DNA of 64,000 bases from contig CABUPU010000003.1 of NCBI GenBank assembly GCA_902493595.1, positions 19,208-83,207 of the forward strand. The letters are read 5' to 3'. The stretch comes from an uncultured Mycoplasma sp. (GTDB lineage: Bacteria > Bacillota_I > Bacilli_A > RF39 > UBA660). The notes beneath the pieces were generated by a model. That model did not search any database. It was not told the origin of the DNA and saw only the letters and a program-made list of their open reading frames with translations. Shown here in pieces: positions 61,115 through 61,994 of the stretch (its first letter is position 1; each line of letters opens with the position of its first letter). The position numbers and the translations under genes were made by a program.

Positions 61115-61867
61115 TTATCCCAGTTTACAATCCAACCGTATTCTATCAGCTATTGTTGAAATAAATTCTGAATTTGTTGGTTTAGATCTTTCAACACTTA
61201 CACTAAAGCCAAATAACTCATCCATAAGATTAATGTCACCACGAGTCCAGCTTATTTCTATTGCATGTCTAATAGCCCTTTCAACTCTTGAAGGTGTACT
61301 ATTAAATATCATTGCTACCTCTGGATACAAATCTTTAGTAACATGTAATAATCTATTACTTTTACAAGAAATTAATATACATTGTCTAATATACTTATAA
61401 CCTTTTATATGTGATGGTATACCTAAATTATGTAATAACTGGCTTATATCTAAATCTATATTATTTCCTCCAAAAGGATTGTTATATTTTCTTGTTATTG
61501 CATCTTTAATTCTTTTTTCTAATGAAATCATACTATATGGTTTTAGTAAATAACACGAAATATTATATTCATCACAATTATTTATAACTAAACCATCCTT
61601 ATAAGTGGATGTTACTATTACTTTCATATTAATATTTCTTATCTTCATTTCCTCAAGGAGTGAAACACCATCTAAGCGGGGTAATAGTAATTCAAGTATA
61701 ACAATATCTGCCTCATTTGGATGATTTACTAAATATTGTAAAGCTTCCTCTCCGTTATTAAAAGCTGCTAACACTTTTATATCTGTATTATTAGCAAAAT
61801 GGTTTCTAATTGATTCAACAGCTATACTGTTGTCATCAATAACTACGATTTTAATGGGTTTTATCAT
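61115..61867 (-). CDS. spo0A: Spo0A sporulation master regulator homologue (phospho-acceptor position is Glu)
   Basis: The Spo0A_C signature is nearly invariant: GIPSHIKGYKYIRQCI, TKDLYPEVA, TPSRVERAIRHAIEISWTRG, KPTNSEFISTIADRIRL. ATG at 61867 has AAGAGGA upstream; the ORF track extends to 61897. Confidence 0.9.
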   Translation of the reverse strand: MIKPIKIVVIDDNSIAVESIRNHFANNTDIKVLAAFNNGEEALQYLVNHPNEADIVILELLLPRLDGVSLLEEMKIRNINMKVIVTSTYKDGLVINNCDEYNISCYLLKPYSMISLEKRIKDAITRKYNNPFGGNNIDLDISQLLHNLGIPSHIKGYKYIRQCILISCKSNRLLHVTKDLYPEVAMIFNSTPSRVERAIRHAIEISWTRGDINLMDELFGFSVSVERSKPTNSEFISTIADRIRLDCKLG

Positions 61868-61994
61868 AAATTTTCCTCTTTCCAATAAATCCCTCACACA
61901 AAATACATATTACACTATAAATAGATAAATTTCAATAGAAAAAAATGTAAAAAATTGACACTTTACGTATAAATGTGTCAATTTTTGTCGAATT

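Follow-up and report, generated by a model that had tools for sequence, protein, structure and literature searches.

In the textbook view, Bacillus and Clostridium decide whether to sporulate through Spo0A, which is phosphorylated to a graded extent by kinases or by a phosphorelay. Can Spo0A also work without the aspartate that takes the phosphate? This question is raised by a locus in a 64,000-nucleotide stretch of DNA (here called the window; positions 19,208 to 83,207 of contig CABUPU010000003.1) from an uncultured bacterium of the RF39 lineage of Bacilli, in which the only spo0A gene of the genome encodes a glutamate, Glu59, at the phospho-acceptor position. We favor, with a probability of roughly 0.6, the reading that this Spo0A is a conserved, working regulator that acts without Asp phosphorylation and is controlled mainly by its own level. 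Sporulation would then probably be started here without the textbook phosphorylation signal.

The genome that the window comes from (G000; relatives are labelled G001, G002 and so on, and loci carry L-numbers) has 1.29 Mb in 23 contigs, is 94% complete and has a G+C content of 25.6%. Another 21 species belong to its genus, their genomes measuring 0.9-1.3 Mb, and its close relatives are metagenome-assembled genomes from human gut samples. A survey of the Bacilli orders RFN20, RF39 and ML615J-28 predicted sporulation in some families and found spoIIE to be missing (PMC10868615).

A Spo0A with glutamate at the acceptor position

All gene features given below lie on the minus strand of the window. 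The open reading frame of spo0A spans 61115-61897 if a GTG start is taken, but the likely start is the ATG at 61867, because the ribosome-binding site AAGAGGA (61874-61880), 7 nt before this ATG, is conserved in the upstream regions of the orthologues together with the ATG itself, and all orthologues begin there. The resulting coding sequence (61115-61867) comprises 250 codons and a stop. Its product scores 214 bits against the Spo0A equivalog model of NCBIfam, TIGR02875 (cut-off 200). The DNA-binding effector domain, Spo0A_C (residues 141-243; 61139-61447), which includes SRVERAIRHAIE, matches PF08769 at 1e-37 and the solved C-domains 1lq1 and 1fc3 at E = 1e-36, so that the initial annotation of this DNA, which had recognized the C-terminal domain as Spo0A, is borne out. 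The receiver (REC) domain (residues 7-120; 61508-61849) matches the Pfam family Response_reg (PF00072, 2.6e-16), and an AlphaFold2 model of the product (mean pLDDT, the predicted local distance difference test score, of 87.6) gives it a (beta-alpha)5 fold.

The receiver also matches the solved Spo0A receivers 5wq0 and 1dz3/1qmp. In this HMMER alignment, DIVILELLLPRLDG falls on DVLLLDIIMPHLDG ('divilELllprldg' in the query against 'dvllLDiimphldg' in the solved receivers). The Glu of the query is thus aligned on the acceptor Asp, and the acceptor is therefore Glu59, encoded by GAA at 61691-61693, just as the initial annotation had read it. Since beta-3 comprises residues 55-58 of the model, Glu59 sits at the canonical acceptor position. 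The rest of the pocket is retained and follows beta-1, beta-4 and beta-5 in the model. It consists of the acidic, metal-binding pair Asp11-Asp12 (61832-61837), Ser87 as the conserved Ser/Thr switch residue (61607-61609) after beta-4 (residues 82-86), and the conserved pocket lysine Lys109 (61541-61543) after beta-5 (residues 103-107). Of the retained residues listed by the initial annotation, the acidic pair and the lysine stand, while its threonine is in fact Ser87. The protein combines a receiver and a Spo0A_C domain above the equivalog cut-off, as in other Spo0As, with the absence of a phosphorylatable Asp after beta-3, and the recognizable receiver fold (PF00072 and the model) with its acceptor Asp replaced by Glu is what marks aspartate-less receivers. 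It is a pseudo-receiver form of Spo0A and a new natural variant; we found no paper describing Spo0A as a natural aspartate-less receiver, and no description of a natural Spo0A without the Asp, or of the D56E change, in the literature.

A profile search gave one Spo0A_C match in the whole genome, and no genome of the genus has a second match of Spo0A length. With no second canonical spo0A in G000 or in the sister genomes, the idea that the Glu59 gene is a spare copy beside a canonical one was ruled out. Two spo0A copies do occur in some relatives (G022:C31:5717-7348, L023; G074:C32:7099-8706; and G030). In G022 and G074 they stand in tandem after tpiA, and the extra copy of G022 keeps the acceptor Asp and has Asp-Asn as its acidic pair. 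A further irregular gene was seen in G025, a 0.9-Mb genome from another family of the same order, where a TAG codon breaks the spo0A frame between the receiver and effector parts (L030, G025:C28:9927-10674).

We read the acceptor residue across the extracted orthologues. It is Glu in 12 species of the genus (G000 and 11 sisters, down to 60% identity) and in G001, whereas another 8 species of the genus and every outgroup have Asp. The 12 species form one clade on a tree of the neighboring phosphoglycerate kinase (PGK) protein (SH-aLRT 94), so a comparison of orthologues for D or E, as the initial annotation had proposed, finds the Glu fixed in a whole clade, where it is written with both possible codons (GAA in 11 Glu-bearing species and GAG in 2; where the residue is Asp, the codon is GAT or GAC). 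Out of 120 metagenome protein clusters, 14 that are full-length and belong to the clade, from several sources, have the Glu too. Spo0A was also read in 27 genera of the family outside this genus, and every one has an Asp acceptor, together with Asp-Asp, Ser/Thr and Lys. Asp is therefore ancestral; judging from these sequences, the replacement of Asp by Glu took place in the ancestor of the 12-species clade. On the same PGK tree, G001 (Glu) is sister to G002 (Asp) with a support of 99, and the change therefore happened at least twice. One more Glu-bearing metagenome cluster, P0061 (53% identity), stands among Asp-bearing sequences, and its Glu is presumed, without a tree, to have a separate origin. 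A search of 1.84 billion cluster representatives gave 124 aligned relatives of Spo0A length, ranked by their likeness to the Glu-type query, of which ~19 (~15%) have no acceptor Asp (Glu in ~10, Asn in 5, Ser in 3, Gly in 1 and Cys in 1); some of these may be extra copies.

The gene is also under selection. Within the Glu clade, pairwise ratios of non-synonymous to synonymous substitution rates (dN/dS, by the NG86 method) range from 0.04 to 0.21 in the receiver and from 0.00 to 0.09 in the effector domain, with dS between 0.3 and more than 1. The spo0A gene of the Glu clade is under purifying selection. These receiver values, together with the lack of a canonical copy elsewhere, dispose of the decaying paralogue that the initial annotation had allowed for, and at a receiver dN/dS of ≤0.21 we also rejected the notion that the receiver has been specially freed from constraint in this clade. 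Identity ratios against PGK had made the Glu-clade receiver look faster, but PGK is a poor clock here, as the codon analysis shows unusually low pgk dS in some pairs.

One irregularity was noticed between G000 and the clade members G014 and G015. Their spo0A and promoter DNA is ~77% identical (L002 against L004 and L007), while identity reaches 90-99% in the adjacent pgk and 97-100% in the unlinked sigF-spoVA locus (L111 against L112 and L113). The identity breaks at the end of pgk, and the downstream synteny differs. The break looks like a recombination or rearrangement junction, or like an allele replacement.

Promoter elements, candidate targets and sporulation genes

The 127-bp gap between pgk and spo0A holds a 0A box, GACA-like boxes, a promoter-like site and the ribosome-binding site. 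The 0A box, a perfect TTCGACA on the gene strand (61986-61992), lies 125 nt upstream of the start codon, is the first of a series of GACA-like boxes spaced by ~10 bp, and is found in 12/12 species of the Glu clade and in several Asp species. Between this box and the -35 hexamer, the sequence TTGACAC-N13-GTGTCAA (61955-61981), conserved as a block in the promoter alignment, may provide further 0A-like half-sites. A consensus scan placed a sigma-A-type promoter-like site, TTGAAA-17-TAATAT, at 61907-61935, with its -10 and TTG blocks conserved across the genus. This layout is common to the Glu and Asp species. A clade-invariant ACGTAAA block in the same promoter was considered as the operator of a new regulator and dropped, as the genome has no family of intergenic copies of it.

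Perfect 0A boxes number 50 in the genome, and 21 of these are intergenic, with intergenic DNA making up ~10% of the genome. Intergenic boxes lie upstream of spoIIAA-sigF (two), spo0A and spoIVA, one perfect box lies 49 bp before spoIIP, and others precede a weak SirA-like gene and a gene for a 116-aa HTH_3 (SinR-like) protein. In front of spoIIAA, the block TTTTGTCGAAGTTGTTTAAA, at a distance of 61-64 nt, is invariant in 12/12 Glu species while its flanks have diverged, and it is present in Asp species too. This footprint at spoIIA is the best available evidence on the point, and it suggests that Spo0A(Glu59) still binds and controls classical targets.

The core sporulation program expected of a Spo0A-bearing genome was found in G000 (SpoIVA, SpoIIGA, sigma factors, SpoIIP and SpoVAC). 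SpoIVA scores 600 bits and occurs in 10/12 Glu species and in 17/22 genomes of the genus (16 above the cut-off). SpoIIGA, which is followed by sigE in G000, occurs in 12/12 Glu species and 20/22 genomes, and a sigF-like gene in 12/12 and 17/22, respectively; sigG and SpoIIP are present in G000 as well. A STAS protein (SpoIIAA) is followed by the divergent sigF-like gene and by spoVAC (Pfam match), after which come two open reading frames that are spoVAD and spoVAE by position only. In this arrangement (L063:573-1545, G000:C7) the short sigF-like gene comes directly after SpoIIAA, with no SpoIIAB between them. Searches of all 22 genomes detected neither SpoIIE (TIGR02865, PF07228) nor SpoIIAB (PF13581), and the control of sigma-F in this genus must therefore be non-canonical; that the two are hidden under other models was rejected, as PF07228 and PF13581 also gave no match. 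No sigma-H was seen among the sigma factors of G000. For sigK, the C-terminal half (119 aa, spanning positions 115-226 of the model) lies directly after the gene for a 561-aa large serine recombinase (L064:2926-4978; G000:C6, ~35.9-38.0 kb), and the N-terminal half was not located. Judging by gene order, this is the layout of a skin-like element interrupting sigK.

How Spo0A(Glu59) may be controlled

We propose that Glu59 would not receive the usual acyl-phosphate from a histidine kinase or phosphorelay, and that the activity of the protein would no longer be tied to Asp phosphorylation. Instead, the carboxylate of Glu59 would engage the Ser/Lys switch and bias the receiver towards its active, dimer-competent form, a bias that is suggested because Asp-Asp, Ser87, Tyr106 and Lys109 are all retained. 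The sporulation decision would be set mostly by the amount of Spo0A, via autoregulation from its own promoter with several 0A-like boxes, and protein partners would perhaps provide a further input.

Known systems both support and qualify this proposal. With the canonical Spo0A of B. subtilis, G. stearothermophilus and clostridia, the protein shares the two-domain architecture, the TIGR02875 score and the effector domain with SRVERAIRHAIE, and its genome shares TGTCGAA 0A boxes at spo0A itself and at spoIIA as well as a sporulation sigma cascade. It differs in having Glu59 where B. subtilis has the phosphorylated Asp56, in a gene position within a lower-glycolysis cluster and not next to spoIVB as in B. 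subtilis, and in a genome in which neither a plain orphan sporulation kinase nor sigma-H was seen. ChxR of Chlamydia trachomatis, an atypical regulator of the OmpR/PhoB family, likewise has a natural Glu acceptor and belongs to a host-associated bacterium with a reduced genome; phosphorylation is needed neither for its dimerization and DNA binding nor for its activation of transcription (PMC3960148, PMC4395418). Its effector family and regulon are different, however. Moreover, ChxR remained active when its Glu was replaced, and its activity thus does not stem from the Glu itself. Other aspartate-less receivers (RitR, FrzS, HP1043, BldM/WhiI and plant PRRs) likewise have the fold of a receiver but no phospho-Asp. 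In this class, the Asp is most often replaced by Glu (26%), and the first acidic residue and the Lys are frequently still there (PMC4395418, PMC12632262); unlike many of these receivers, Spo0A(Glu59) keeps the whole remaining pocket (Asp-Asp, Ser and Lys). The same substitution has been engineered, and NtrC D54E is a phosphomimic (PMC4395418, PMC3960148, PMC12632262), but this protein and the B. subtilis Spo0A mutants are laboratory products, whereas the Glu described here is natural and fixed across species. We treat the label 'classic phosphomimetic', which the initial annotation had attached to the change, as a hypothesis.

Several points weigh against a Spo0A(Glu59) that is active by itself. 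According to a review, which cites Green et al. 1991, the Asp-to-Glu change alone is insufficient for a constitutive B. subtilis Spo0A (PMC4395418). Glu may thus be an insufficient phosphomimic without other changes, and we identified no compensating changes beside Glu59 that would complete one. Compared with the Asp species (0.01-0.03, with dS saturated there), the Glu clade shows a somewhat higher dN/dS in its receiver, which could reflect partial relaxation. The whole genus, including the Asp species, is without detectable SpoIIE and SpoIIAB, and its sporulation control is unusual anyway. The binding and activity of Spo0A(Glu59) are predicted ones, and these organisms are putative spore-formers.

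Finally, the kinase repertoire does not separate Glu from Asp species in a HATPase_c survey of 22 genomes. In G000, two histidine kinases each have an OmpR-type regulator as partner, and three further kinases are hybrids (618, 601 and 594 aa). A plain orphan kinase was found neither in G000 nor in its Asp-bearing sisters (no search was aimed at Spo0F, Spo0B or Hpt). The Asp species G018 has only three paired kinases, and some Asp species have no hybrids. With the same pattern in both groups, no kinase loss accompanies the change from Asp to Glu, and a sporulation kinase kept in Asp species and lost in Glu species was rejected on the same survey. The missing co-loss weakens the comparative argument, but it does not contradict the reading that we favor. 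As to the surroundings of the hybrid kinases, two of them (601 and 594 aa) each follow an AMP-binding enzyme in one cluster (L061:374-11082, G000:C12), which continues with unknown proteins and an amidoligase-like protein and adjoins htpG, and the third (618 aa, L059) precedes a receiver-HD-domain protein.

A different input is the explanation that competes best. Here Glu59 would hold the receiver locked 'off' or neutral, and Spo0A, still controlled by signals, would be switched by a bound protein or small molecule, by removal of the receiver or by methylation of the Glu. Although we think it less likely, such non-phosphate input stays a serious rival, because the Asp-to-Glu change alone was insufficient in B. 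subtilis Spo0A, according to the review cited above (PMC4395418). It would also fit with the full switch apparatus (Asp-Asp, Ser87, Tyr106 and Lys109) staying under selection, with Glu methylation having been named as a possible modification of aspartate-less receivers (PMC4395418), and with some pseudo-receivers being independent of the residue at the acceptor position (PMC12632262). However, we found no partner, ligand or modifying enzyme that could be put forward as a candidate, nor, in a comparison limited to kinases, any gene that co-varies with the substitution.

It is far less probable that spo0A is a relic heading for loss, with sporulation being abandoned and the Glu marking a dead receiver. 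Small genomes (only 0.9-1.3 Mb), the undetectable SpoIIE and SpoIIAB, and the independent losses of sporulation described in these orders (PMC10868615) are in line with such a course, and one lineage of the genus may have taken it. G001 and G002 (L022 and L017) are without SpoIVA, SpoIIGA and the sigF-like gene, and keep spo0A between pgk and gpmI; the Spo0A of G001 joins its Glu acceptor to a degraded acidic pair, Glu-Asn in place of Asp-Asp, and that of G002 keeps the Asp. Sporulation may be gone in this lineage, and the Spo0A of G001 may be decaying. In the 12-species clade, by contrast, the gene is intact with a dN/dS of ≤0.21 where synonymous divergence is saturated, the spo0A and spoIIA promoters have kept their 0A boxes, and the spore genes are in place (SpoIIGA and the sigF-like gene in 12/12, SpoIVA in 10/12).

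We give even less credence to a Glu59 that is still phosphorylated, as gamma-glutamyl phosphate, for example by a hybrid kinase, which would preserve the usual logic with another chemistry. The longer side chain of Glu misplaces the carboxylate for in-line transfer, which counts against such a reaction. The metal-binding Asp-Asp pair and Lys109 are retained, the genome has its three hybrid kinases, and Glu is chemically phosphorylatable (PMC4395418), yet no such modification is known in bacterial signaling (PMC4395418), and the hybrid kinases, which are also present in Asp species and absent from some genomes, do not track the substitution. There is practically no chance that faulty sequencing or assembly produced the Glu, or that it is confined to one mutant strain, a caveat of the initial annotation for which nothing speaks except that GAT to GAA needs only one base change, since 12 species' genomes and 14 independent metagenome clusters carry it, in both GAA and GAG codons.

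The preferred reading, of a Spo0A(Glu59) that works without Asp phosphorylation, can be taken further. It is conceivable, although we hold this only tentatively, that minimal-genome gut Bacilli start sporulation without any phosphorylation step, with Spo0A(Glu59) intrinsically active and its concentration serving as the switch. If so, a self-activating promoter, housed in the lower-glycolysis cluster for as long as the family has existed, would set this concentration. That neither the SpoIIAB kinase nor the SpoIIE phosphatase is detectable would mean that the sigma-F step, too, proceeds without phospho-signaling, and kinase-independent Spo0A would be a recurrent natural solution, given the ~15% of the 124 representatives that are without the Asp.

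A sole-copy Spo0A that is unable to take an aspartyl phosphate, and is selected together with its targets and spore machinery across a clade of bacteria from the human gut, would show that the phosphorylation layer is dispensable. With Asp and Glu orthologues in one genus, under the same promoter design, nature has also set up an experiment in which comparison could show how a receiver is re-wired. The case bears on the genome-based prediction of spore formation, and of spread by spores, in uncultured gut Firmicutes, and calls for caution, as the presence of spo0A does not guarantee canonical regulation. Although its mechanism is one that we infer, we consider this Spo0A of real interest for research on sporulation and on two-component signaling.

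The glycolytic neighborhood

The locus order in G000 is gap-pgk-spo0A-gpmI, so that spo0A does lie between pgk and gpmI, as the initial annotation had stated. Upstream, pgk (61995-63146; PF00162, 1.4e-109) adjoins spo0A in all 21 spo0A loci of the genus, including this one. The downstream neighbor is gpmI, for cofactor-independent phosphoglycerate mutase (59531-61036; iPGM_N and Metalloenzyme domains). It has this place in most of the genus, the exceptions being G013, G014 and G015 of the Glu clade.

The initial annotation had further placed spo0A in the position of tpiA, the gene for triosephosphate isomerase (TIM). This holds in so far as spo0A stands next to pgk and tpiA is absent, both from the rest of G000 and from all 22 genomes of the genus (0/22), but a replacement does not agree with the order in the family. 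There, 36/40 other genera have tpiA, and a comparison of coordinates puts it immediately before spo0A in at least 25 genera. G024 has the order pgk-tpiA-spo0A, and G030, which belongs to another family, has spo0A between the end of a TIM-like gene and gpmI; the ancestral order was therefore pgk-tpiA-spo0A-gpmI. Read in this way, spo0A is a long-standing resident of the lower-glycolysis cluster, and the genus then lost tpiA. A tpiA remnant between pgk and spo0A was ruled out, as the gap of only 127 bp is filled by promoter elements. No phosphofructokinase (PFK) and no class II aldolase were found in G000 (class I aldolase was not among the enzymes searched), and the genome appears to keep only lower glycolysis (gap, pgk and gpmI), in which case TIM would be dispensable.

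A scan found no terminator on either side of spo0A. Co-transcription of spo0A with central glycolysis, which the initial annotation had suggested, is not required by the data as we read them, because spo0A has predicted promoter elements of its own and gpmI is not downstream in G013, G014 and G015. In G015 (L082:1420-5441, G015:C18), spo0A is followed by genes for a pilin-like N_methyl protein, RNase R (rnr), SmpB and a DUF3048 protein, without gpmI, and judged by their lack of gpmI matches, G013 and G014 probably have the same downstream region. In the window itself, gpmI and the S10 ribosomal-protein operon are separated by a 175-aa open reading frame on the minus strand (58958-59485), whose only match, to the head domain of poly(A) polymerases and nucleotidyltransferases, stays below the threshold (E = 1.7e-4).

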